Shown here: piece by piece, positions 6,975-42,904 of the stretch
How the letters are laid out: every line of letters starts with the position of its first letter
How positions within the stretch are numbered: the first letter of the stretch is position 1
Assembly (NCBI GenBank): GCA_964433785.1
Contig: CAYSTL010000002.1
Location: 2,193-66,192 of the forward strand
Direction: 5' to 3'
DNA from: an uncultured Thermoplasmata archaeon
GTDB taxonomy: Archaea; Thermoplasmatota; Thermoplasmata; Halarchaeoplasmatales; Halarchaeoplasmataceae
Length of the DNA: 64,000 nt
The notes under the pieces: model-generated
Told to the model about the DNA's origin: nothing
Databases searched by the model: none
What the model saw: only the letters and a program-made list of their open reading frames with translations
Translations under genes and position numbers: made by a program

Positions 6975-9890
<2,916 letters not shown>

Positions 9891-10354: not shown

Positions 10355-11188
10355 ATGAAGAAGATACCAACAGGAATAAGTGATCTAGATTCTATAATCA
10401 AAGGTGGGATACCTGCGGGATCTGTAGTTCTCTTGTTGAATGAAATCGGAGCTGGTGGTTTGGAATACCTATACACGGCTTCAGCCAAATTACTACGAGT
10501 AATAGAAAGTCCTAAAGACATACATCTTCTATTGGGAGATGAATGCAAACAATCCATACTACCCCAGGAAGTACATTACGTGACCTTTTCTAGGTCGATG
10601 GAAGACGTACTTGACGAAGTCCAGATCTCATTCAACCAAGATTATTATGATGTCATCGAAGAAAATCTAGAGATCAAAGATTTTTCAGAATCATATTTCA
10701 AAAGAACGATGGTTCCACCCGGATGGACTGGAAAACGAAATAAAAAAAATATATTCTCAGATGATTCAAACTCTGACCTATTGGAAGAGCTCGTTAACTT
10801 TTTGGAAGAGAACGCGGAAGACAATATGATAGTGATAGATTCTCTGACAGACCTGTTGACGAACTCATCTATCGATAATGAAAAATTGGTCACAATCATC
10901 AAAGGTATGAGGAGAGCCTCTAAACAGTGGGGTGGAGTGATATATTTACTACTTTCAAAAGGTATAATTGAGAAAAGCACGGAATATCTATTGATAGACA
11001 GTGTCGATGGAGTCCTAACTTTCGAATGGTCAAAAAATAGAAGAACCTCCCAAAGACAGAGATACATGTTAGTTGATAAATTCATGAGTGTCCTACCTCA
11101 TCTAAAACGAGAGAAGATAGCTAGATTCACTGCTGAAGTGACCGATTATGAGGGGTATACTGTAGTCAATTATGAAAAGATTAGGTGA
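10355..11188 (+). CDS. KaiC/RadA-paralog-like RecA-superfamily protein with a degenerate Walker A; predicted inactive ATPase
   Basis: N-terminal 'GIxxLDxxIxGGIPxGS' KaiC/RadB signature. The P-loop position reads 'NEIGAGGLEY' and lacks the GK[T/S] lysine. 277 aa. Its stop lies 6 nt before the next gene start. Confidence 0.6.
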   Translation: MKKIPTGISDLDSIIKGGIPAGSVVLLLNEIGAGGLEYLYTASAKLLRVIESPKDIHLLLGDECKQSILPQEVHYVTFSRSMEDVLDEVQISFNQDYYDVIEENLEIKDFSESYFKRTMVPPGWTGKRNKKNIFSDDSNSDLLEELVNFLEENAEDNMIVIDSLTDLLTNSSIDNEKLVTIIKGMRRASKQWGGVIYLLLSKGIIEKSTEYLLIDSVDGVLTFEWSKNRRTSQRQRYMLVDKFMSVLPHLKREKIARFTAEVTDYEGYTVVNYEKIR

Positions 11189-11193
11189 TATGT

Positions 11194-11901
11194 ATGGCAA
11201 AAGAAGATATTAAAAGGGTGAAAACTGGTATCGAAGGATTAGACGATATGTTGAACGGGGGTATACCAAAAGGCCACGTGTTTACTGTGATGGGTGCCTT
11301 TGGAACGGGTAAAACAACATTTTCATTACAATACTTATGGAATGGTTTACAGAACGACGAATCTGGAATATTCATCACGTTAGAAGAAGATAGAGATGCG
11401 ATGATAGAAACTGGTTTATCATACGGATGGGATTTCAGACCTTATATAGAAAATGATAAATTGGCAGTTGAAAAATTGAAACCTGCCGATGCTCAAGCTA
11501 CTATATCTAAGATACAGAGTGAATTACCTGCGTTTATTGATAATTTTGATGCTGAGAGAATAGCCATCGATTCCGTTTCTTTGTTAAATATGATGTCTGA
11601 TACAAATAAAGAAAAGAGAGAAAGATTGTTCAGTCTATGTCAGATGATAAAAGACACCGGCGCAACGGCTCTTTTCACCGCTGAAGTAAAAGATGATAAC
11701 CCGACCAGTTCTAGAGATGGTTTGATCGAATACACTACAGATGGTGTTATACTTCTCAGATACAACCAAAAAGATATGCAGGATGTAGAGCTGAGTGTAC
11801 AGGTTATCAAGATGAGAAGGATAGAACACTCTAGAAAGATCAAGCCGTATCTTATCTCGGATAATGGTATCAAAGTTCAGGCTGAAGGAGCTATATTCTA
11901 A
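11194..11901 (+). CDS. KaiC-like/RadB-like RecA-superfamily ATPase with canonical Walker A
   Basis: 'GIEGLDDMLNGGIPKGHVFTVMGAFGTGKTTFSLQY' plus a Walker B-like 'RIAIDSVS'. ATG at 11194 is preceded by AGGTGA. The ORF-track start at 11185 is a GTG. Confidence 0.7.
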   Translation: MAKEDIKRVKTGIEGLDDMLNGGIPKGHVFTVMGAFGTGKTTFSLQYLWNGLQNDESGIFITLEEDRDAMIETGLSYGWDFRPYIENDKLAVEKLKPADAQATISKIQSELPAFIDNFDAERIAIDSVSLLNMMSDTNKEKRERLFSLCQMIKDTGATALFTAEVKDDNPTSSRDGLIEYTTDGVILLRYNQKDMQDVELSVQVIKMRRIEHSRKIKPYLISDNGIKVQAEGAIF

Positions 11902-11910
11902 AGTGGTAAA

Positions 11911-12933
11911 ATGGGAGTGGGTATAAGCGATATAATCGTCAGTGAGGAGATCGGCCTCGACGATCTGGAAGATAGGGTGATAGCGGTAGATGCTTACAAT
12001 ATAATATATCAATTTTTATCTAGTATAAGACAGAGAGACGGTACCCCGTTGAAGGATTCTGAAGGTCGAGTGACCTCTCATCTTTCCGGACTGCTTTACA
12101 GAAATGCCAATCTAATCGAGAATGGGATCAAACTGGTGTACGTTTTCGATGGTAAACCAGATGTTATGAAAGAGGGAACTCTCGAGAAAAGGAAGGAAAG
12201 GAAGAAGAAGGCGAAAAAAGAATATGAAAAAGCTCTCGAAAAAGGTGACCTGGAAAAAGCAAGGACCAAAGCTCAACAGACTTCAAGGATGGATTCTGAG
12301 ATCGAAGAGAGCAGTAAAGAGTTATTGGATTTATTGGGTATCCCGTGGGTCCAGGCTCCAGCAGAAGGTGAAAGTCAGGCAACCTATATGGTCAAAAATG
12401 GTGATGCATGGGGAGTTGGCAGTCAGGATTACGATTCGTTATTGTTAGGTGCTCCTAGATTGATCAAAAATCTGACCATAACCGGCAAAAGAAAACTGCC
12501 CGGAAGAAACGAATATAAGGAGATAACTCCTGAATTGATCATCCTGGAAGATGCGTTGGAAGAACTCGAGATAACTCGAGAACAGTTGATCGATATAGGG
12601 ATACTTTGTGGCACCGATTATAATGAGGGAGTCAGAGGGATCGGTCCGAAAAGAGGACTCAAATACGTAAAGAAATACGGTGATCTCGAAGGTGTTTTGG
12701 AAGAGAAGGAAAAAGAGGTCAATAACTATGAAGATATCAAAGAACTGTTCTTGAATCCAAAGATCACCGAAGATTATTCGATAGAATTCAAGAAGATAGA
12801 TGTGAGTGGTATCAAGGATTTCTTGTGTGATAAGCACGAATTTTCGGAATCAAGAGTACAAAGCGCCCTAGATAAAATAAAAGAAGGTAGAGATAAAAGT
12901 AAGCAGATGAGTTTGAGTTCTTTCGGTGACTAA
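11911..12933 (+). CDS. fen: Flap endonuclease 1 (FEN-1)
   Basis: N-terminal 'MGVxISDII...IAVDAYNxIYQFL' XPG-N signature, then an I-domain and helical arch. 340 aa, typical of archaeal FEN-1. Confidence 0.85.
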   Translation: MGVGISDIIVSEEIGLDDLEDRVIAVDAYNIIYQFLSSIRQRDGTPLKDSEGRVTSHLSGLLYRNANLIENGIKLVYVFDGKPDVMKEGTLEKRKERKKKAKKEYEKALEKGDLEKARTKAQQTSRMDSEIEESSKELLDLLGIPWVQAPAEGESQATYMVKNGDAWGVGSQDYDSLLLGAPRLIKNLTITGKRKLPGRNEYKEITPELIILEDALEELEITREQLIDIGILCGTDYNEGVRGIGPKRGLKYVKKYGDLEGVLEEKEKEVNNYEDIKELFLNPKITEDYSIEFKKIDVSGIKDFLCDKHEFSESRVQSALDKIKEGRDKSKQMSLSSFGD

Positions 12934-15900
12934 CAGAACTCATCTAGACTTGGTGTGGATACCTTATCATTTTGGAATAAAGATTCGATCTGCTCCTCTA
13001 ACTGTTTTACTCTCTGGTAAAGGTAATCTGGTACATCGTACCTTTCTACCATCTCTAAGGAGTGATTGAGGTACTTTTTTACACTCCCTTCGTGTATGGT
13101 GAGAGTTAGATTTCCACCACAGTCACACTCACCGCTTAAAGGTATCCTTCTATATTTTGTATTACATTTTGTACATCTGATGGTTTGGACTCCAAATTTA
13201 TTGAAATTACCGATCAGATCGGGGATGAAATGATCGCTGATAACCCTGCTTACAACATCCGCAGTATCCACTGCTCTGATAAGATCAGCCACTTTTATCT
13301 GGGCGTTCATCTTATCTGTCATCTTACCCAATCTGGTGTATTTACTCATCGTAGGGCCTTCTGCGATATCATCAGTGTCGTGAGTGTATCCAAATCCTTC
13401 ATACTGACTCTCAGTCTCTAATCTATCCTCTGCTATCTCCATAATATCTGATAATTCCTTAGGATCCGGATAATCCAATGATCGTTCATAAAATTCTAGA
13501 GGATATTTCCAAATAGTGTCTACATTGTGGGCCTCGCTGTCTATCTCTGAAGGATCTATCCTTGTGGTCAAAACTAGTGGGGCATCCATTAAACCGCCTC
13601 TTTTTTGAGGGAGGAACTCTTCTGAAAAGTTGAGTAGTCCATCTAATAGAAGCATTATACAGTCTTCATCCCCATCACAATTTCTTCTTTTAGCTGCATG
13701 GAAATATGGATGAGCATATCCAGCCCTTCCTTTATGGAAACCTATCAAGCGACCAAGAACACCGCCCGAAGTGTGTGGTGCGAGACCTACAATAAGTTCT
13801 CCGATCATATCTTCCTTTCTTTCAGCGTCGTAATATGAGTTAAGACCATAATACTTCTCTAACAGATCGTCTACGAATTTAGCCACCTTTACGATATACT
13901 GTCCAGCACTATTTGAGGCGATGAAATCCTGAACCTTTAGCTCCAACATCTGGTTCTCATCTTTCAGTTCGTCACCATGGATGTCTTTTTTATAACCCAA
14001 TTCCTTCGCCTTTTCAACTGACAGACCGATCTCTTTAGGTTTAAAATGGGTTACAGGCAGATCGGTCATATCGTACCGAGTAGTTCCATCTTTGAACACG
14101 TAGATACCGTACTTGGCCCTTAATATGCCCTTTTCAAGTGCTTCAGGTGTTTTAGTTTCAGTCATCAGACCTTTCACGCCCTTGATCTTCTGTACATTAC
14201 CACCCTCACCTAGAGTGGAAAGAGCCTGTCTAAATATATTCTTCATAGGTATCTTCTGTTCCTTGGGCTCATCAATTATCTCACATCTACCATCACAGGA
14301 ACATCTTACTGTAGCACTGGTCCTTCCACATTCTTTACATCGTCTAGCACTTATGTCTACTTCTATTACACCCTCATCTACAGCTTTTCTTACCAATCGT
14401 TGGGAACCACCAGCATCACCTACAGGGAAAAGTGTGTGGACAGGTGGGCTCATCTTCCGTTCCTTCGCCTTCTCAGGTCTAGCCATCCTAGAACCTATAG
14501 TAGTAGGACCTTTACTTCTTATCGGGACTCCAGCCAGATGAGAAATGTATTCCATCGGATCTTCCTTCTCACTTTCTCCAATCTTTTCTAAAGATTCTAA
14601 GTCCAATCCCAATGTGAATAATAACGAACGATACTCCTCAACGATGATCTTTTCATTTTCTAAAGTATGAGGTATGCCTATCTGCTCCATTATCTCTTTG
14701 ATCTCTTCTTTATTTTTGATGTGTAGATCATCATTTAGATCAGCTTCTTCAGAGATCCATTGCCTCAATTCTTCGATTTCTTCTACATCGACATAATCCC
14801 AAAAATAGATGTATTTTGGATGTAGAGGATATCCTTTCTTTTTGGAGAGCTCTACTGCCTTTTCATAATCTACTTCTTCCTGTTTTATGTCCTCATCCAC
14901 TTCCTGAACCCACCATTCGTGGCAGTAAGCCCCCGGAACTAAAGGATGGTTGTTCTCAACGAATTCACCATACGGGATCAGTATCTCCCCGATATCTATT
15001 ATCTCTTTTACTTTGAGACTAATCTCTTTCGCCTCTTCTGATGTATCTACCCTTTTTACAGTTCCATCGTGAAGTAATACTGTAGGACCTTCGATCGTAT
15101 CACAAGGAGTGACCGCTCCAGCTTTACCCGGCCTTTCGATCTTTACCTGAGTGCCCAGGGCCATGAACTCTTCGGTCAGGTACATGGTTGCTGGATTTAT
15201 TGCGATAGATGCAAGACCACCGGTCCTAGCTCTTCCGTACCTTAGTCGAAAACCACCTTTTCTACTTGGGTGTCCAAAAACTGGTCTTCCTGCTATCGTC
15301 TCTTTTATATATTTATAATTGGGTTTTATACCCTTATCTTCCTCCCCATCTTCTTCATCAGATTTACTCTTTCCAGACATGTACTTATCGATGTACTCAT
15401 CTAAGAAATCCCAGCCGATACCTAATTTATCGACGTGCTTCTTCAACTTTTGAGCCTTAAGGCACATGCCTTCAGCGATGACAAGACATGCCCCACCTCT
15501 CACTCTATTTGTATCGACTCTAGGAAGATCTCTGTTACCAGATACCTCGGTATCAGTACCCTCACCACTTATACTAACAGGACAACCATCAACTATCAAA
15601 GATATCTCTTCATTCGAGGGGGTGTATTGAAGTCCTAAAGATTTCTTGTATAGAGGTATCTCTTCCTTGAACCTCTGTATCTCGTCCTGGTTGGCTTTGA
15701 ATTCTCCGATGCCTAATTCTCTTCTTACTACATCCGCTATCAGAACACTCATCGCCTGTCCAGTTCCACCAGCCGATCGTATCGGGCCAGCAAAAGAAAG
15801 TTCGACGTAATTACTCCCATCAAAATTCTCTCGGATCTCTACTCCACCGATACCTTCCAGTGGTGCAACAAGAATACCTTCAGTTAGTACTGCTAAACCT

Positions 15901-16205
15901 ATCCTAACAGCATCTTCCAGTCTTTCGCTGACACTACCTTCATCTCTAGATGCAACCTCTTTAGCGATACGTATCGAAACTTCTTCCCTATCGTATTTTT
16001 CACTAAGTTCTCTTATCTTTTCAGCAGTATTCTTAACTCCGGTCAGTTCCTGAGCTCTCAGTGCAAGATCCTCTGCTCTCGGGATCTCGATCTCAGTTGT
16101 AGGATCATATCCCCTACCCCTAGCTTTTTCAGCTAACTGATAACATCTCTCTGCTTCGTCTTCCAGATCTTGGAAATATTCTTTCATCTCATCAGAAAAT
16201 TTCAA
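12930..16205 (-). CDS. polC: DNA polymerase II (PolD) large catalytic subunit DP2; no intein
   Basis: 1091 aa. The N-terminus 'EYFQDLEDEAERCYQLAEKARGRGYDPTTEIEIP' and the Cys-cluster zinc-binding modules (CKECG...CSCDG, CTKCNTKYRR...CDCGG) match archaeal DP2. The ORF-track start is TTG; an in-frame ATG at 16187 is an alternative. It converges on fen with a 4-nt stop/stop overlap. Confidence 0.9.
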   Translation of the reverse strand: MKFSDEMKEYFQDLEDEAERCYQLAEKARGRGYDPTTEIEIPRAEDLALRAQELTGVKNTAEKIRELSEKYDREEVSIRIAKEVASRDEGSVSERLEDAVRIGLAVLTEGILVAPLEGIGGVEIRENFDGSNYVELSFAGPIRSAGGTGQAMSVLIADVVRRELGIGEFKANQDEIQRFKEEIPLYKKSLGLQYTPSNEEISLIVDGCPVSISGEGTDTEVSGNRDLPRVDTNRVRGGACLVIAEGMCLKAQKLKKHVDKLGIGWDFLDEYIDKYMSGKSKSDEEDGEEDKGIKPNYKYIKETIAGRPVFGHPSRKGGFRLRYGRARTGGLASIAINPATMYLTEEFMALGTQVKIERPGKAGAVTPCDTIEGPTVLLHDGTVKRVDTSEEAKEISLKVKEIIDIGEILIPYGEFVENNHPLVPGAYCHEWWVQEVDEDIKQEEVDYEKAVELSKKKGYPLHPKYIYFWDYVDVEEIEELRQWISEEADLNDDLHIKNKEEIKEIMEQIGIPHTLENEKIIVEEYRSLLFTLGLDLESLEKIGESEKEDPMEYISHLAGVPIRSKGPTTIGSRMARPEKAKERKMSPPVHTLFPVGDAGGSQRLVRKAVDEGVIEVDISARRCKECGRTSATVRCSCDGRCEIIDEPKEQKIPMKNIFRQALSTLGEGGNVQKIKGVKGLMTETKTPEALEKGILRAKYGIYVFKDGTTRYDMTDLPVTHFKPKEIGLSVEKAKELGYKKDIHGDELKDENQMLELKVQDFIASNSAGQYIVKVAKFVDDLLEKYYGLNSYYDAERKEDMIGELIVGLAPHTSGGVLGRLIGFHKGRAGYAHPYFHAAKRRNCDGDEDCIMLLLDGLLNFSEEFLPQKRGGLMDAPLVLTTRIDPSEIDSEAHNVDTIWKYPLEFYERSLDYPDPKELSDIMEIAEDRLETESQYEGFGYTHDTDDIAEGPTMSKYTRLGKMTDKMNAQIKVADLIRAVDTADVVSRVISDHFIPDLIGNFNKFGVQTIRCTKCNTKYRRIPLSGECDCGGNLTLTIHEGSVKKYLNHSLEMVERYDVPDYLYQRVKQLEEQIESLFQNDKVSTPSLDEFC

Positions 16206-21463: not shown

Positions 21464-22039
21464 ATGAAACTGACCGAGAAAGAAATAAAAAATATAAAAG
21501 ATATGCATGAAGAAGGGTTTTCACTCAATGAGATAGCTGAAGAATTGGAAAAAGACAAGGACGATTTTAAAAATCATATCATAAATGAAAAACTCCTCAG
21601 CGAGGAACTCAATGATTTATCTCTACAATCAAAAGCGTTCAAAATGTTCGACGAGGGAAAGGACGGAGTCGACCTCGTTAAAGAAGGTTACTGTACAGCA
21701 GCTGAAGCCGGAGTATTGATGGAGAAATATTCCGATCTATCAGAGGCGGAAGATGAATCGGAAAAGATAAAAGATATGCACAGGAAGATCTCCACCCAAG
21801 TGGGACTTTTGGGCAGCAGAGTAGCTAGATTGGAAGTCAAAATTATGAACGCTTTGCTACTGCCAAAAACATTCGAATGTCCATCCTGCGGTAATAAAGG
21901 AAAATATGAGGTCGGTGTTGTCTGTGATTCCTGCGGGAAAGTCACAACCTACATACCTGATGAGATCAAGGATAGTCTATCTGGAAAAATAGTAGATACT
22001 TCAGTATATGTTGGAAATTCCGATGAAGAAGAGGATTAA
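21464..22039 (+). CDS. Hypothetical protein with an N-terminal HTH-like segment, a coiled-coil middle and a C-terminal zinc ribbon
   Basis: 'KDMHEEGFSLNEIAEEL' resembles a sigma-region-4/transposase-type HTH. The C-terminus has 'CPSCG...CDSCG'. 191 aa, acidic. It converges on the DnaA-like gene with a 4-nt overlap. Confidence 0.45.
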   Translation: MKLTEKEIKNIKDMHEEGFSLNEIAEELEKDKDDFKNHIINEKLLSEELNDLSLQSKAFKMFDEGKDGVDLVKEGYCTAAEAGVLMEKYSDLSEAEDESEKIKDMHRKISTQVGLLGSRVARLEVKIMNALLLPKTFECPSCGNKGKYEVGVVCDSCGKVTTYIPDEIKDSLSGKIVDTSVYVGNSDEEED

Positions 22040-23682
22040 GAAACATAAGATATAGTATCCATCTCTCTTTCTAAAATACTTATTTCCTTATCTTCTAAAG
22101 CGTTCGGATTCACTATCACTAAAAATATACTCTTTGTTTCTGATACTATATCCACCATGTGTCGTATAAATTTTAAAGAAGCCTCAAAATTTACATTACT
22201 TATCAGATATTCAAGACCATCCAATAATATCACTGAATCCTCTTTACTCTTCTTCTCTAAAAGCCAACTCAATCTCTCAAGATTGGGTGAGATCGTTTCG
22301 AATTTCTCACTTTCTTTATCTGTCAACCATTTTACTTCTGATTCTTTCAATTCAAACTCATCTTTAATCCTTCCAGGATTCAATCTTGATATCACTAAGC
22401 GCTCATTATCATTATCAATTTTATTTAACAATTCAAACACGTTTTCAACGCTTTCACCCTTGATCAGATAACTTCGTCCTTCGAGAACATCTAACTTCAA
22501 TTCTTCGTGCTCAATCTCCTTATCGATATACTGTTCCAATGTCTTCTTAACATTGTTTAGGGTAACTTCTTCATCGAGTAGATCTGAATAAGCAGACACT
22601 CTTGTTAAAGCTCCTTCTATGAAGTTCACATTTTTTTTGATATTTTCGGCTATAAAATCTAATACTTCTGGAGATGTTTCGAAATCAAATTGTTCGGATT
22701 TCTCTTTGATTATCTGTCTCCTAGTCTCATATGTAGGGGGTAAAATATCGACCACCAATCCTGATTTAAATCTAGAAGCCAATCTCTCCTCTATCTCGGT
22801 TATATTTTCAGGAGGTCGATCACTGGAGATTACTATCTGTCCATTTTTGCTTTGGATCTCATTAAATATATGAAATAATGAATGTTGAACATCTAATCTC
22901 TCAGCGATATATTGTATATCATCCAACAGTAAAGTATCACATCCGATATACTTCTCCTCAAATTTCTTTGAGTCATCGCCTTCTAAGTATTTATCAAAAT
23001 TAGAGATCAACTTGGAAGTCTCTACGTACTTAATTTTTCTACTTTGGAACTGTTTTGATAATGCCCTGCCGATAGCCTTCATAAGATGAGTCTTTCCCAA
23101 ACCTGATTCCGCTTTAATCAATAAAGGATTATAACTTTTTTCAGGATTTTTTGAAACCGCTAGAGCTGCAGCGTAAGCAAATCTATTGTTTGGCCCAACT
23201 ACGAATTTGTCAAAACTGTATCTACTCGGAAATTTATCCTCGATTTTTTCTGATATCTTAGAAGATCTACGAGGACTTATCTCCCCATCCATGATCTTTA
23301 TAGCGATATCTACTTGCTTATCTTGTCCAATTTTATACTCGCTGGTCTCTTCTTCTCCAGCTATCTTCCCATCCATTTCTGAAATAATTTTATCTATATC
23401 CACTTTAGTGTATACCTGTATCTTCAATCCGGCTTTATGTTCCAAGCTTTGAATTCTTTGTAATGACTCTAAACCTCTTAATCTCTCCGAAGGTGTTTCA
23501 AGCTGGGAAACAATAGGTATTCCTTTTTTAATTACAATAAGGCCTTTGTACTGATCAGATATTTCAATTCTTACATATCCAGTAAAAGAGTGATTCTTCA
23601 ATTTAGTCAATAAAGACTGGAGTTTCCCAGTTCCTTCGATCTCCTGTATTTTAAATCCTTTAGATATATTATTCAACGACAA
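22036..23682 (-). CDS. DnaA-like AAA+ ATPase fused to a C-terminal DUF835-like domain and an unknown N-terminal domain; not a canonical replication initiator
   Basis: Residues ~150-390 contain 'YSFDKFVVGPNNRFAYAAALAVSKNPEKSYNPLLIKAESGLGKTHLMKAIG' (DnaA box: FDNFVxGxxNxxAxAAAxxVAExPGxAYNPLFIYGGVGLGKTHL). They also contain 'LLLDDIQYIAER' and 'SSDRPPENITEIEERLASRFKSGLVVDILPP' (DnaA sensor/box VII region: SDRPP...RLxSRFxxGLxxDIxPP). The DnaA domain IV DNA-binding HTH is absent. The C-terminus 'GRSYLIKGE...LVISRLNPGRIKDE...VKWLT...ISPNLERLS...SVILLDGLEYLI...NFEASLKFIRHMVDIV...IFLVIVNPNALEDKE' matches what I recall of archaeal DUF835. Confidence 0.7.
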   Translation of the reverse strand: MSLNNISKGFKIQEIEGTGKLQSLLTKLKNHSFTGYVRIEISDQYKGLIVIKKGIPIVSQLETPSERLRGLESLQRIQSLEHKAGLKIQVYTKVDIDKIISEMDGKIAGEEETSEYKIGQDKQVDIAIKIMDGEISPRRSSKISEKIEDKFPSRYSFDKFVVGPNNRFAYAAALAVSKNPEKSYNPLLIKAESGLGKTHLMKAIGRALSKQFQSRKIKYVETSKLISNFDKYLEGDDSKKFEEKYIGCDTLLLDDIQYIAERLDVQHSLFHIFNEIQSKNGQIVISSDRPPENITEIEERLASRFKSGLVVDILPPTYETRRQIIKEKSEQFDFETSPEVLDFIAENIKKNVNFIEGALTRVSAYSDLLDEEVTLNNVKKTLEQYIDKEIEHEELKLDVLEGRSYLIKGESVENVFELLNKIDNDNERLVISRLNPGRIKDEFELKESEVKWLTDKESEKFETISPNLERLSWLLEKKSKEDSVILLDGLEYLISNVNFEASLKFIRHMVDIVSETKSIFLVIVNPNALEDKEISILEREMDTISYVS

Positions 23683-23766
23683 GGTAATACATAATTTGTC
23701 ATCATGATAAATATATTTTCGCTAAAAAAGCAAAAAAACTTATAATTTTGAAGAGATTGATAATTT

Positions 23767-24375
23767 ATGAAGAGTTTATTCACTCGATGTCCTTCCTGCG
23801 GAGCACATTTTTATAAAAATTTAAAGGAAGGAGAAAACACCTCAGATGTAGACGTTATTTGTCCCTACTGTAATTACAGATATATCGATTCGCTGCACGA
23901 GAACAGGGTCAAAGAACATGATTTTTACTGGGAGATATATTCCGGTCTATATCCTACATTGAAAATAAACAATAATAAAAAATCTAGACTGATAGTAGCG
24001 GGCATCTTATTATTTTTGACCATCCCGTTTTTCGTATACGGCTTTTCACAGATATTCATTCCAAATTCTTTAATAGAATTATCGGGGGCCGAATTAAACA
24101 GCATATATGGAGTGTGGTTGGCTGGAATAATTTTTCTGTCGTTCGTCGTGGGGGGTACGATAAGCGCGATAAAACGTTATTCCTTTGTATTATCTCTCTC
24201 TGGAATAATCTTCGCCATCTTAAGTTCGATTCTCTGGTTTTATATGTACCAATACTTAGAAATCGATCTATTGGGTAATCTTTCCCAGCTCCTTATGTTT
24301 ATACCTCAGATACTCTCGATGATCTCACTAGTATTGATAATAAAGAACAGAGAATCATTCAAACTTGGTTACTGA
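23767..24375 (+). CDS. Zinc-ribbon membrane protein, hypothetical
   Basis: N-terminal 'CPSCG...CPYC' zinc ribbon followed by about four TM helices. 202 aa. Confidence 0.5.
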   Translation: MKSLFTRCPSCGAHFYKNLKEGENTSDVDVICPYCNYRYIDSLHENRVKEHDFYWEIYSGLYPTLKINNNKKSRLIVAGILLFLTIPFFVYGFSQIFIPNSLIELSGAELNSIYGVWLAGIIFLSFVVGGTISAIKRYSFVLSLSGIIFAILSSILWFYMYQYLEIDLLGNLSQLLMFIPQILSMISLVLIIKNRESFKLGY

Positions 24376-33034: not shown

Positions 33035-33228
33035 ATAAACACCTTGAAATTCTTATTAAACACTCATTATTAAACCATTTTGTCTATCATGATTTCAAAA
33101 ATATGATTTATCAAGACAATTTTTTTATAACTTCTAAACACTTATCTTATTGTTGGAGGACAAAATTGAGTTATAAGTGAATATCTTGTTCTTCAACATC
33201 TGACGTAATTTCAGGATGGCGAAATAAA

Positions 33229-34383
33229 ATGGCGCGAATAGATGATTTTAGAGTTAAGGACATTATGAGTAAAGAAGTGATCACCGCGGAACCAAAAGAT
33301 ACTGTTTCTGATGCGATCGGTTTGATGAAGAAACATAATATTTCAGAGATACCAATAATAGAAGATGGGGAAATAATCGGCCTGATAAGCGATGAAAAGT
33401 TTATCGAAAGAAGACATCTACCATTTTCTACAAAATTAGAACACGTGATGAGTAAACCCCCTAAAATAAACGAGAACGATTCTATTGTTGAACTTTGTGA
33501 GATGCTCCTTTCTTCAGGATATAGGGGTCTACCTGTCAGTGCCGGAAATAGTGATCTGGTCGGTTTTGTTTCCAGGACAGACATCGTATCGATAATACCA
33601 GAGATCGATGAATTAGCAGATATAGATGTAAACGATGTTATGACTCCTTCCCCAACCACAGTGACCGAAAGGGAAGGTATCGCTAAAGCAAAATCATTGA
33701 TGAAAAAGCTTGATGAAAGGGTATTACCCGTAGTAGATAAACACGGCCATCTAAGTGGGATGATCGGTGTTAAAGATATAGTAAACGGGGGTTCATGGCC
33801 AATAGAGAGGGAAGAAAAAGGTGAAAGAAGAGGTGAACGTGATTCACCATACGATAATTTGGAGATCCTAAGTTTGATGAACAAACCACCTGTTAAAATA
33901 ACTCCGAATGAAACTGTAAAAAAAGCAGCCGATAAAATGAATGAATATGATATATCGACATTAGTAGCTGCAGAAAATGGCAATGTAAAAGGGATAATAA
34001 CACAATATGACTTGGTGGAACTGATAACAACCTTTAGAGAAGCTGAGCAAGTCTATGTCCAGATAACTGGACTTGAAGCTTCTCCAGAGATGTACGACCA
34101 GATGTATGATTTAGTTCAAAAATATCTGAGCAAAATTAACAATGTTCTGAAACCACTGGTTCTGAACATACATGTCGTCACCCATAAAAAGGAAGGCAAT
34201 GAAACAAAATATAGTATCAGGTTGAGGCTCAACACCGATTACGGTATGTTCTACGCTAATAAATACGACTGGAATATAATGAAAGCCCTCGATGATTCAC
34301 TTGAGAGTGTCAGGAAGAAGGTGTTCCAGGAGAAAGAGAAATGGGTAGCAAATAAAAAGCATCCAAAATATATAGGAAAATAG
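33229..34383 (+). CDS. CBS-domain protein with two CBS pairs and a C-terminal domain of unknown function
   Basis: Four CBS repeats ('DIMSKEVITAEP...', 'VMSKPPKINE...', 'VMTPSPTTV...', 'LMNKPPVKIT...'). The C-terminal ~110 aa are unassigned. Confidence 0.75.
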   Translation: MARIDDFRVKDIMSKEVITAEPKDTVSDAIGLMKKHNISEIPIIEDGEIIGLISDEKFIERRHLPFSTKLEHVMSKPPKINENDSIVELCEMLLSSGYRGLPVSAGNSDLVGFVSRTDIVSIIPEIDELADIDVNDVMTPSPTTVTEREGIAKAKSLMKKLDERVLPVVDKHGHLSGMIGVKDIVNGGSWPIEREEKGERRGERDSPYDNLEILSLMNKPPVKITPNETVKKAADKMNEYDISTLVAAENGNVKGIITQYDLVELITTFREAEQVYVQITGLEASPEMYDQMYDLVQKYLSKINNVLKPLVLNIHVVTHKKEGNETKYSIRLRLNTDYGMFYANKYDWNIMKALDDSLESVRKKVFQEKEKWVANKKHPKYIGK

Positions 34384-42830: not shown

Positions 42831-42904
42831 GCGACTGTGGTCTAGACTGGTTAAGACTCAAGCTTCCCAAGCTTGCTTCCCGGGTTCAAATCCCGGCAGT
42901 CGCA
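42831..42904 (+). tRNA. tRNA-Gly (anticodon CCC); no encoded CCA
   Basis: Manual fold: 7-bp acceptor stem GCGACTG/CAGTCGC, D-arm GTCT-AGACTGGTTA-AGAC, anticodon stem CAAGC/GCTTG with loop TTCCCAA, T-arm CCGGG-TTCAAAT-CCCGG, discriminator A. 74 nt. Confidence 0.8.

Follow-up and report, generated by a model that had tools for sequence, protein, structure and literature searches.

What is the ATPase core of DnaA doing in an archaeal genome? Textbooks treat DnaA as the hallmark of replication initiation in bacteria and assign archaea Orc1/Cdc6 alone. The question is raised by one gene in a 64,000-nucleotide stretch of DNA, called the window here, from an uncultured Thermoplasmata archaeon (GenBank assembly GCA_964433785.1, contig CAYSTL010000002.1, positions 2,193 to 66,192 of the forward strand): the open reading frame (ORF) at 22036-23682 on the reverse strand, which a first-pass annotation, made from the letters alone, had read as a DnaA-type AAA+ module set between two domains foreign to DnaA. 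Judged by its sequence, the encoded protein appears to have the engine of a DnaA without being one, since it fails on domain I, on domain IV, on a residue of the initiator-specific motif (ISM) and on the equivalog score. The reading that we favour, and hold at about even probability, is that it would act as an ATP-dependent oligomerising switch or timer in archaeal KaiC-type signalling and not as a replication initiator. The gene and its parts are as follows (window positions; aa, amino acids):

22036-23682, reverse strand: whole DnaA-like gene of 548 aa, with N-terminal domain (N-domain), linker, DnaA domain III and DUF835/iKaiC domain
23365-23682, reverse strand: N-terminal alpha/beta domain, aa 1-106, topology b-a-b-b-b-b-a-b-a, distantly DUF4388-like at best
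23227-23364, reverse strand: charged, variable linker, aa 107-152
22507-23226, reverse strand: DnaA domain III, AAA+ base and lid, aa 153-392
22039-22506, reverse strand: DUF835/inactivated KaiC-like (iKaiC) domain (C-domain), aa 393-548, in the place of DnaA domain IV

The 548-aa reading starts from the TTG at 23682 and ends at the stop codon 22036-22038; the public annotation (P0001; P numbers are our handles for proteins, L numbers for loci) starts two codons on, from a second TTG (23676), and gives a 546-aa product with 100% identity. Its middle part is of DnaA type, as had been claimed, and lies nearer to DnaA than to Hda or IstB: Pfam Bac_DnaA (PF00308) matched aa 153-312 with E=7.7e-56 and 189.2 bits (cutoff 23), whereas the Hda model TIGR03420 reached 94.6 bits (cutoff 194.8), NF038214 51.7 bits (cutoff 200), and IstB_IS21 (PF01695), of the IstB/DnaC type that had been named as the competing assignment, only 25.9 bits. 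On these scores the protein is neither Hda nor IstB/DnaC. The closest solved relative is Bacillus subtilis DnaA (8btg; E=3.9e-57), whose residues 68-346 of 446 align with aa 106-386, an alignment that takes in domain III and not domain IV. Likewise, the NCBIfam DnaA model TIGR00362 aligned aa 96-395 with its positions 51-351 of 437, ending ahead of domain IV, and scored 287.4 bits, under its cutoff of 343.9. In the Pfam scan neither Bac_DnaA_C (PF08299) nor DnaA_N (PF11638) matched the protein, and with both alignments ending early the proposed loss of domain IV stands. Its place is occupied by DUF835 (PF05763), also as anticipated, at aa 414-541 with E=6.4e-24 and 84.7 bits against a cutoff of 33.1, or 90.6 bits when the segment is scanned alone.

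All of the motifs quoted in the first-pass annotation were located in the translation: GLGKTH at aa 194-199, LLLDDIQ at 251-257, SSDRPP at 286-291, RLASRF at 300-305 and, in the C-domain, LLDGLEYLISN at 486-496. Within DnaA domain III the landmarks lie as follows:

23086-23103, reverse strand: Walker A, GLGKTH
within 22987-23004, reverse strand: ISM H-motif position, Asp230
22912-22932, reverse strand: Walker B, LLLDDIQ
22810-22827, reverse strand: sensor-1, SSDRPP
22768-22785, reverse strand: box VII, RLASRF, with the arginine finger R304
22600-22632, reverse strand: box VIII, NVNFIEGALTR, with Asn353 at the sensor-2 Arg position

A motif census of 53 family members shows that the family has kept the nucleotide-binding and inter-protomer motifs: Walker A (GxGKTH) is present in all 53, the Walker B DD in 52-53, the sensor-1 Asp in 53 and its Arg in 51, the arginine finger (SRF) in 49 and the sensor-2 Arg of box VIII in 48, and a basic residue stands at the K243-equivalent position past Walker B in 47. 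The window protein is alone among the members in having Asn at sensor-2 (NVNFIEG vs NVRFIEG), so the proposed check of an intact ATPase gave a divided answer: Walker A and B, sensor-1 and the arginine finger are kept here, and the sensor-2 Arg is not. This copy, by its Asn353, probably binds ATP and hydrolyses it poorly. Other departures, all in clade A of the family and checked by direct reading of the sequences, include Gly at the arginine finger of the nearest relatives P0002 and P0003, Ile at that position in P0008, and Ser or Thr at sensor-2 in P0015-18. These substitutions mean that the catalytic arginines were lost several times in clade A, with the ATP-binding motifs kept.

The ISM column tells a different story from the ATP site. 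It holds Ile or Val in 58 of 58 bacterial DnaAs (37 Ile, 21 Val), whereas the archaeal family has Arg (10), Ile (7), Ser, Asp and Asn (6 each) and others, with Asp230 in the window protein. This position is the equivalent of V211 in Escherichia coli and I190 in B. subtilis, and in bacterial DnaA it makes contact with single-stranded DNA. To judge from the sequences, the parts of DnaA that interact with DNA or with partners in bacteria, namely domain I, domain IV and the hydrophobic ISM residue, have all been lost. Evolutionarily, the aligned DnaA module is on average 47% identical to bacterial DnaA, and a crude neighbour-joining tree of the AAA+ module (distance-based, unrooted, with a bacterial sample biased to best matches, and one from which the donor lineage is not identifiable) does not interleave the family with bacterial DnaA.

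Structurally, the C-domain has the RecA/KaiC/FlaH fold with an inactivated nucleotide site. Its strand 1 ('RSYLIK') runs into 'GESVENVF' with no P-loop (family consensus 'YLIEEER'), and PF06745 (KaiC) did not match it in the Pfam scan; since the Walker A lysine and threonine are both missing, the domain cannot be an ATPase or autokinase, which sets it apart from the KaiC-like ATPases and FlaH/ArlH (PF06745; 4yds, 2dr3). The Walker-B-like 'LLDGLEYLISN', together with several other surface motifs, is near-invariant in the C-domains of the family. This combination of a lost P-loop and a kept Walker-B-like motif fits the published account, in which DUF835 is a KaiC-like domain that has lost its activity and serves archaeal response regulators as their output, within a proposed KaiC-centred signalling network (PMC5847659). 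On its sequence features, we regard the C-domain as a bona fide DUF835/iKaiC. As in the known proteins, it forms the C-terminal end of the chain, a module for output or docking with the RecA/KaiC/FlaH fold and no P-loop; the described architectures are REC-, PAS- and sensor-DUF835 (Galperin et al. 2018, PMC5847659), with REC, PAS or an extracellular sensor in front, whereas here a DnaA-type AAA+ and the N-domain precede it.

The N-terminal region had been given as one separate, unassigned domain of 150 aa; separate and unassigned it is, though it divides into a folded domain of ~105 aa and a linker of ~45 aa. Structure prediction covered the two unknown domains. The AlphaFold (AF2) model of the N-domain, built from the family alignment, has pLDDT 90.6 and pTM 0.82; DnaA is absent from its fold matches, Foldseek gave nothing below E=0.2 against the PDB, and a profile search of the PDB found no match. 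By its modelled topology and these searches, this domain is not DnaA domain I and is without a solved homologue. The expectation for the N-terminus had been a DUF4388-like match or none, and the window protein has no Pfam match there at E<=0.1; across 27 family members the same scan gave at most weak matches to DUF7330, DUF2226 and DUF7624. With the N-domain profile, a word-indexed search yielded 3 fragments and no more, whereas an exhaustive one yielded 249 representatives at E<=1e-3. These occur in three architectures: the DnaA-DUF835 family, proteins of ~330 aa with tandem copies, and two giants of 1,348 and 1,420 aa (P0186 and P0248). It is in the tandem-copy proteins, one of which adjoins dCache-HAMP sensor genes, that sub-threshold DUF4388 (PF14332) matches appear (E ~1e-4). 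The linker behind the N-domain, ~45 aa in the window protein, extends in clade B to a far longer helical segment, and the spacing across it from GY to FxxFVVG is ~100-175 aa in clade A and ~250 aa in clade B.

How widespread is this protein? When the C-domain alignment was used to scan one genome per species of the Genome Taxonomy Database (GTDB), at least 456 candidate relatives came up, of which the best 80 were examined. These 80 loci all belong to Thermoplasmata, Thermoplasmatota, Methanomassiliicoccales or 'Methanobacteriota' metagenome-assembled genomes (MAGs), including Ca. Saliniplasma and Ca. Halarchaeoplasma (order Halarchaeoplasmatales), and in 75 of them a DnaA AAA+ lies directly upstream of DUF835, in the same gene and the same reading direction. 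The five without an AAA+ match comprise two cut by a contig end (L022, L052) and three of N-domain-DUF835 type (L078, L086, L088), and at L037 a sensor-type CARDB-DUF835 protein has its AAA+ match ~1.8 kb upstream. From clade B, a profile search gave 120 best matches that all carry PF00308 and PF05763 and all come from MAGs or metagenomes; no cultured organism was among the best matches of the family searches. Synteny is conserved across dozens of species, with Na/Ca exchanger, TraB, PHP and DUF447 genes in clade A and PGK in clade B. The family is large, syntenic and vertically inherited across Thermoplasmatota, and the suggestion that the gene is a horizontally acquired factor, in the sense of an isolated event, does not hold. 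The architecture is already in databases under automatic names; we found no literature on DnaA-DUF835 and no paper describing it, and an earlier mention is possible in Makarova, Galperin & Koonin 2017 (mBio 8:e01959-17).

The genome itself is archaeal, since the contig carries an archaeal 23S rRNA (6975-9890, reverse strand); it also has PolD DP2, FEN1, aIF-2B, a class I aminoacyl-tRNA synthetase and diphthamide synthase. An independent assembly and another made from raw reads both have the identical protein and gene order, and the guanine-plus-cytosine (GC) content of the 2-kb block at the gene is not strongly anomalous, at 0.334 vs 0.35-0.40 in most non-rRNA blocks. The first-pass annotation had drawn attention to polD, fen and a RecA-like pair nearby. 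They are indeed present in the window, 5.8-11 kb off (PolD DP2 at 12930-16205, FEN1 at 11911-12933, the pair, which is KaiC-like, at 10355-11901), but in relatives other genes take their place (NadABC in L003, PFL in L007, XPD/IleRS in L010), so the proximity of polD and fen is probably coincidental.

Two further architectures bear on how the fusion is put together. The giants P0186 and P0248 consist of an N-domain, a long coiled coil, a Bac_DnaA AAA+ and a C-terminal double zinc ribbon; their AAA+ keeps the ISM Ile and has a mean identity of 55% to bacterial DnaA, and P0248 (L091, 10001-14263) lies on a 227-kb contig among archaeal-type neighbours (a Ski2-like DSHCT helicase, AbrB-PhoU). They share the N-domain and the DnaA-type AAA+ with the window protein, the zinc ribbon being fused in them and encoded by a neighbour here; they differ in having no DUF835, in the long coiled coil ahead of the AAA+ and in an AAA+ nearer to bacterial DnaA. 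As read from their domain order, these fusions would provide an independent 'Rosetta-stone' link between the DnaA AAA+ and a zinc ribbon. Conversely, the three loci without an AAA+ match (L078 1014-2384, L086 1218-2552, L088 5092-6447) encode ~450-aa proteins of N-domain and DUF835 without the DnaA module, and the clade-B zinc-ribbon partner still comes after them. The DnaA cassette was either inserted into an N-domain-DUF835 scaffold or lost from it. A separate observation concerns proteins of ~630-670 aa with two tandem Bac_DnaA AAA+ domains (P0054, P0055, P0057-P0060, P0062, P0065, P0067), which lack domains I and IV as well as DUF835 and are another DnaA engine without a DNA-binding domain.

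The immediate surroundings of the gene are these:

21464-22039, forward strand: downstream partner, 191 aa, with N-terminal helix-turn-helix (HTH), helical core, coiled coil, CxxC...CxxC zinc ribbon and acidic C-tail (…SDEEED)
23683-23766, no strand: divergent intergenic region, 84 bp, with the A/T-rich, TATA-like stretch aaaatatatttatc before the start
23767-24375, forward strand: divergent upstream gene, 202 aa, with N-terminal zinc ribbon (CPSCG…CPYCN), then a hydrophobic multi-pass membrane region

The DnaA-like gene is monocistronic, as had been noted, with the upstream gene divergent and the downstream gene convergent. The flanking intergenic regions measure 84 and 98 bp; the 84-bp one is too short for a replication origin, and from a direct reading of it the stretch aaaatatatttatc may serve as a promoter. 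The convergent HTH and zinc-ribbon gene, which had also been pointed out, is real: it overlaps the 3' end of the DnaA-like gene by 4 nt, has domain evidence in an HTH_38 match (E=3.4e-5) and a weak DZR match, and its homologues are linked in relatives. In clade A the arrangement amounts to a triad of upstream zinc-ribbon membrane gene, DnaA-iKaiC gene and downstream zinc-ribbon partner. Homologues of the membrane gene are 28-37% identical in L003, L007 and L010 and were seen in 16 loci; those of the partner (~140-213 aa) were present at 20 of the 23 closest loci, at most ~1.4 kb downstream and either convergent or co-directional, and in L010 the partner gene is co-directional with a 4-nt overlap. 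Because the linkage survives inversion, it points to a functional tie and not to an operon accident. The C-tail of the clade-A partner is conserved as acidic (…EEED, or …RPWEEE in short forms; homologues in L011-L033), and the short, co-directional partners (140-161 aa) are without the N-terminal HTH that the longer, convergent ones (184-213 aa) have.

In clade B the position directly past the stop is taken, in 57 of 59 loci, by a convergent double-zinc-ribbon protein of ~450-600 aa whose C-terminal region is long and helical. In 27 loci that partner gene is adjoined by a gene for an intact KaiC-like ATPase of one domain, and PGK lies upstream in 21. In all, a zinc-ribbon protein gene adjoins the family gene at 77 of 80 loci. 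Homology of the clade-A and clade-B partners beyond the zinc ribbon was considered and rejected, as hhalign found them alike in the ribbon alone (24 columns, probability 79%); nor could the window's KaiC-like pair be taken as the orthologue of the clade-B KaiC-like neighbour, tblastn giving no match. That pair (10355-11901, forward strand) is an operon of two genes with a 4-nt overlap, directly upstream of FEN1 and beside PolD DP2: the first, of 277 aa, has a weak KaiC match (E=7.8e-10) and a degenerate P-loop without lysine ('NEIGAGGLE'), and the second, of 238 aa, has a match at E=2e-60 and an intact 'GAFGTGKTT', making an inactive/active pair.

Elsewhere in these neighbourhoods, a Roadblock/LC7 gene (L003 3957-4316, L007 1973-2329) belongs to the clade-A synteny block, ~6 kb from the DnaA-iKaiC gene, and by synteny alone its region would correspond to ~28.8-29.7 kb of the window; at the clade-B locus L008 a small Ras/Arf-like GTPase lies ~8 kb from the DnaA-iKaiC gene. 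The 23S rRNA is solitary, with no 16S or 5S found in the 64-kb window, and the rRNA genes thus appear unlinked. The sole tRNA in the window is Gly-CCC (42831-42904), and a 270-aa ORF at 33171-33983 (reverse strand) lies almost entirely antisense to a gene with four CBS domains (33229-34383, forward strand) and is most likely spurious, a shadow ORF.

Functionally, then, what could such an assembly of domains do? We posit that the protein would bind ATP and assemble head-to-tail through its conserved arginine finger in the manner of DnaA, that the assembly would serve as a nucleotide-dependent switch or timer instead of melting an origin, that the iKaiC domain and the adaptor-like N-domain would tie this switch to the archaeal KaiC-centred signalling network, and that the neighbouring zinc-ribbon protein would be its immediate partner; because the clade-A partner carries an HTH, it may supply DNA binding in trans. 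The signalling context is suggested by the KaiC neighbours of clade B, the iKaiC literature, the CARDB-DUF835 protein of L037, the dCache-HAMP neighbours and the cassette-less proteins of L078, L086 and L088. Such a switch is among the options that the first-pass annotation had left side by side (a signalling AAA+ switch, a replication-control factor, an undescribed system). Several points weigh against it, though. Oligomerisation, ATP binding and partner contact are read from motif conservation and gene linkage; the kinship of the N-domain to DUF4388 is sub-threshold; the KaiC-like neighbour is absent in the window and in clade A; and the zinc ribbon being all that the clade-A and clade-B partners have in common, the 'partner' is a recurring theme and not one orthologous protein. 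In addition, the AAA+ module is still ~47% identical to bacterial DnaA, a high value if its job has supposedly changed, and a DnaA-like activity on nucleic acid could be retained.

Comparison with the characterised relatives sharpens the question of whether replication is involved. With bacterial DnaA (TIGR00362; 8btg, 2z4r, 1l8q) the protein shares a domain III ~43% identical to that of B. subtilis, with Walker A GxGKTH, Walker B LLxDDxQ, sensor-1 SDRxP, box VII RLxSRF and the box VIII frame, as well as a variable charged linker ahead of the AAA+ in the manner of DnaA domain II; it differs in having no domain I and no domain IV HTH, no conserved Ile/Val in the ISM, a sub-cutoff score, Asn at sensor-2, no adjoining region of origin size and an archaeal host. 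By analogy, the closest functional parallel for a DnaA domain III without domain IV would be Hda (TIGR03420; 5x06), a DnaA paralogue consisting of the AAA+ alone, which binds no DNA and regulates through AAA+-AAA+ contacts. The similarity to Hda is much weaker, however (PDB E=1.4e-5, and under half of the TIGR03420 cutoff), Hda is a ~230-aa protein with a clamp-binding motif, whereas two extra domains are present here, and the archaeal host offers no DnaA to regulate.

A replication-control factor, whether making Hda-like contact with Orc1/Cdc6 or acting as an auxiliary initiator that borrows DNA binding from its partner, is the most probable of the rivals, and we judge it rather unlikely. The AAA+ is unmistakably DnaA-type, with boxes VI-VIII conserved as well as the high overall identity to bacterial DnaA, the clade-A partner does have an HTH, the basic K243-equivalent residue is widely kept, and PolD and FEN1 lie within 6-10 kb in the window. 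Yet both DnaA domains I and IV are absent and the ISM residue for single-stranded DNA is lost, the flanking intergenic regions, at under 100 bp, leave no room for an origin, and none of 151 family members has a PCNA-interacting peptide (PIP) or clamp-binding motif. Orc1/Cdc6 was not found among the 30 window ORFs scanned, and at 8 related loci the neighbours listed include no Orc1/Cdc6-specific Pfam family; relatives do not preserve the linkage to replication genes, and the catalytic arginines have repeatedly been lost in clade A. We consider it quite unlikely that the protein is instead a structural or scaffolding ATPase of segregation, division or the cytoskeleton, in which the N-domain and a coiled-coil linker would form a spacer or adaptor and the AAA+ would drive assembly. 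Regulators of polarity and motility are associated with DUF4388-like domains, and the linker does grow from ~45 aa here to the longer helix of clade B and the long coiled coil of P0186/P0248; a related protein, P0175, is auto-annotated as 'chromosome segregation ATPase', and upstream of the gene in L009, L044, L063 and L084 there are tubulin-like and PAC2 genes. Those neighbours are confined to few loci, though, no linkage to SMC, ParA or CdvABC was seen, the window protein has no more than a minimal coiled coil, and DUF835 and the KaiC context point to signalling.

The other two rivals can be dealt with more briefly. Defence islands commonly contain AAA+ ATPases together with zinc-ribbon partners, and PADLOC gave a weak match to mad8 (E=8.5e-5, 20 bits), but that match is to a generic P-loop; the membrane zinc-ribbon neighbour reached 16.5 bits and the two zinc-ribbon partners had no match. 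With housekeeping synteny conserved, GC not strongly anomalous and no integrase, transposase or tRNA-flanked island seen, we reject a horizontally acquired defence system or mobile element as very improbable. For an artefact, be it contaminating bacterial DNA, a chimeric assembly or a pseudogene in decay, one could cite the Asn at sensor-2 and the arginine finger lost in close relatives; this is refuted by an uninterrupted 548-aa ORF on a contig with archaeal 23S rRNA, PolD, FEN1 and diphthamide synthase, by the same protein and gene order in the independent and raw-read assemblies, and by an architecture that recurs in at least 75 species with all three modules strongly conserved, so that its probability is practically nil.

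Returning to the switch or timer that we favour, one extension is tentative and, in our estimate, unlikely by a shade more than the replication-control factor: a bacterial DnaA core captured early in Thermoplasmatota would now be the timer of a KaiC-type hub that gates replication or the cell cycle through the HTH/zinc-ribbon partner. If true, a bacterial initiator would have been re-used as an archaeal cell-cycle regulator alongside Orc1/Cdc6. More generally, the family is a counter-example to DnaA as a bacterial marker, its core having been put to another use in hundreds of Thermoplasmatota species, as a fixed part of a fusion to archaeal domains of signalling type. Many members (P0033-P0039, P0288, P0293 and others) are named 'chromosomal replication initiator protein DnaA' by the JGI and NCBI pipelines; as these proteins have neither domain I nor domain IV, the name is systematically wrong, and it can lead astray the prediction of origins, contamination screens that take dnaA for a bacterial marker, and attempts to reconstruct metabolism or replication from these MAGs. 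The family is also a natural experiment, a DnaA ATP switch without its DNA-binding parts, that could show what role domain III has of its own. Finally, archaeal KaiC/iKaiC signalling has hitherto been proposed as a network from comparative genomics only, and the family offers it a testable node, made up of the AAA+, the iKaiC domain, the zinc-ribbon partner and, in some lineages, KaiC.

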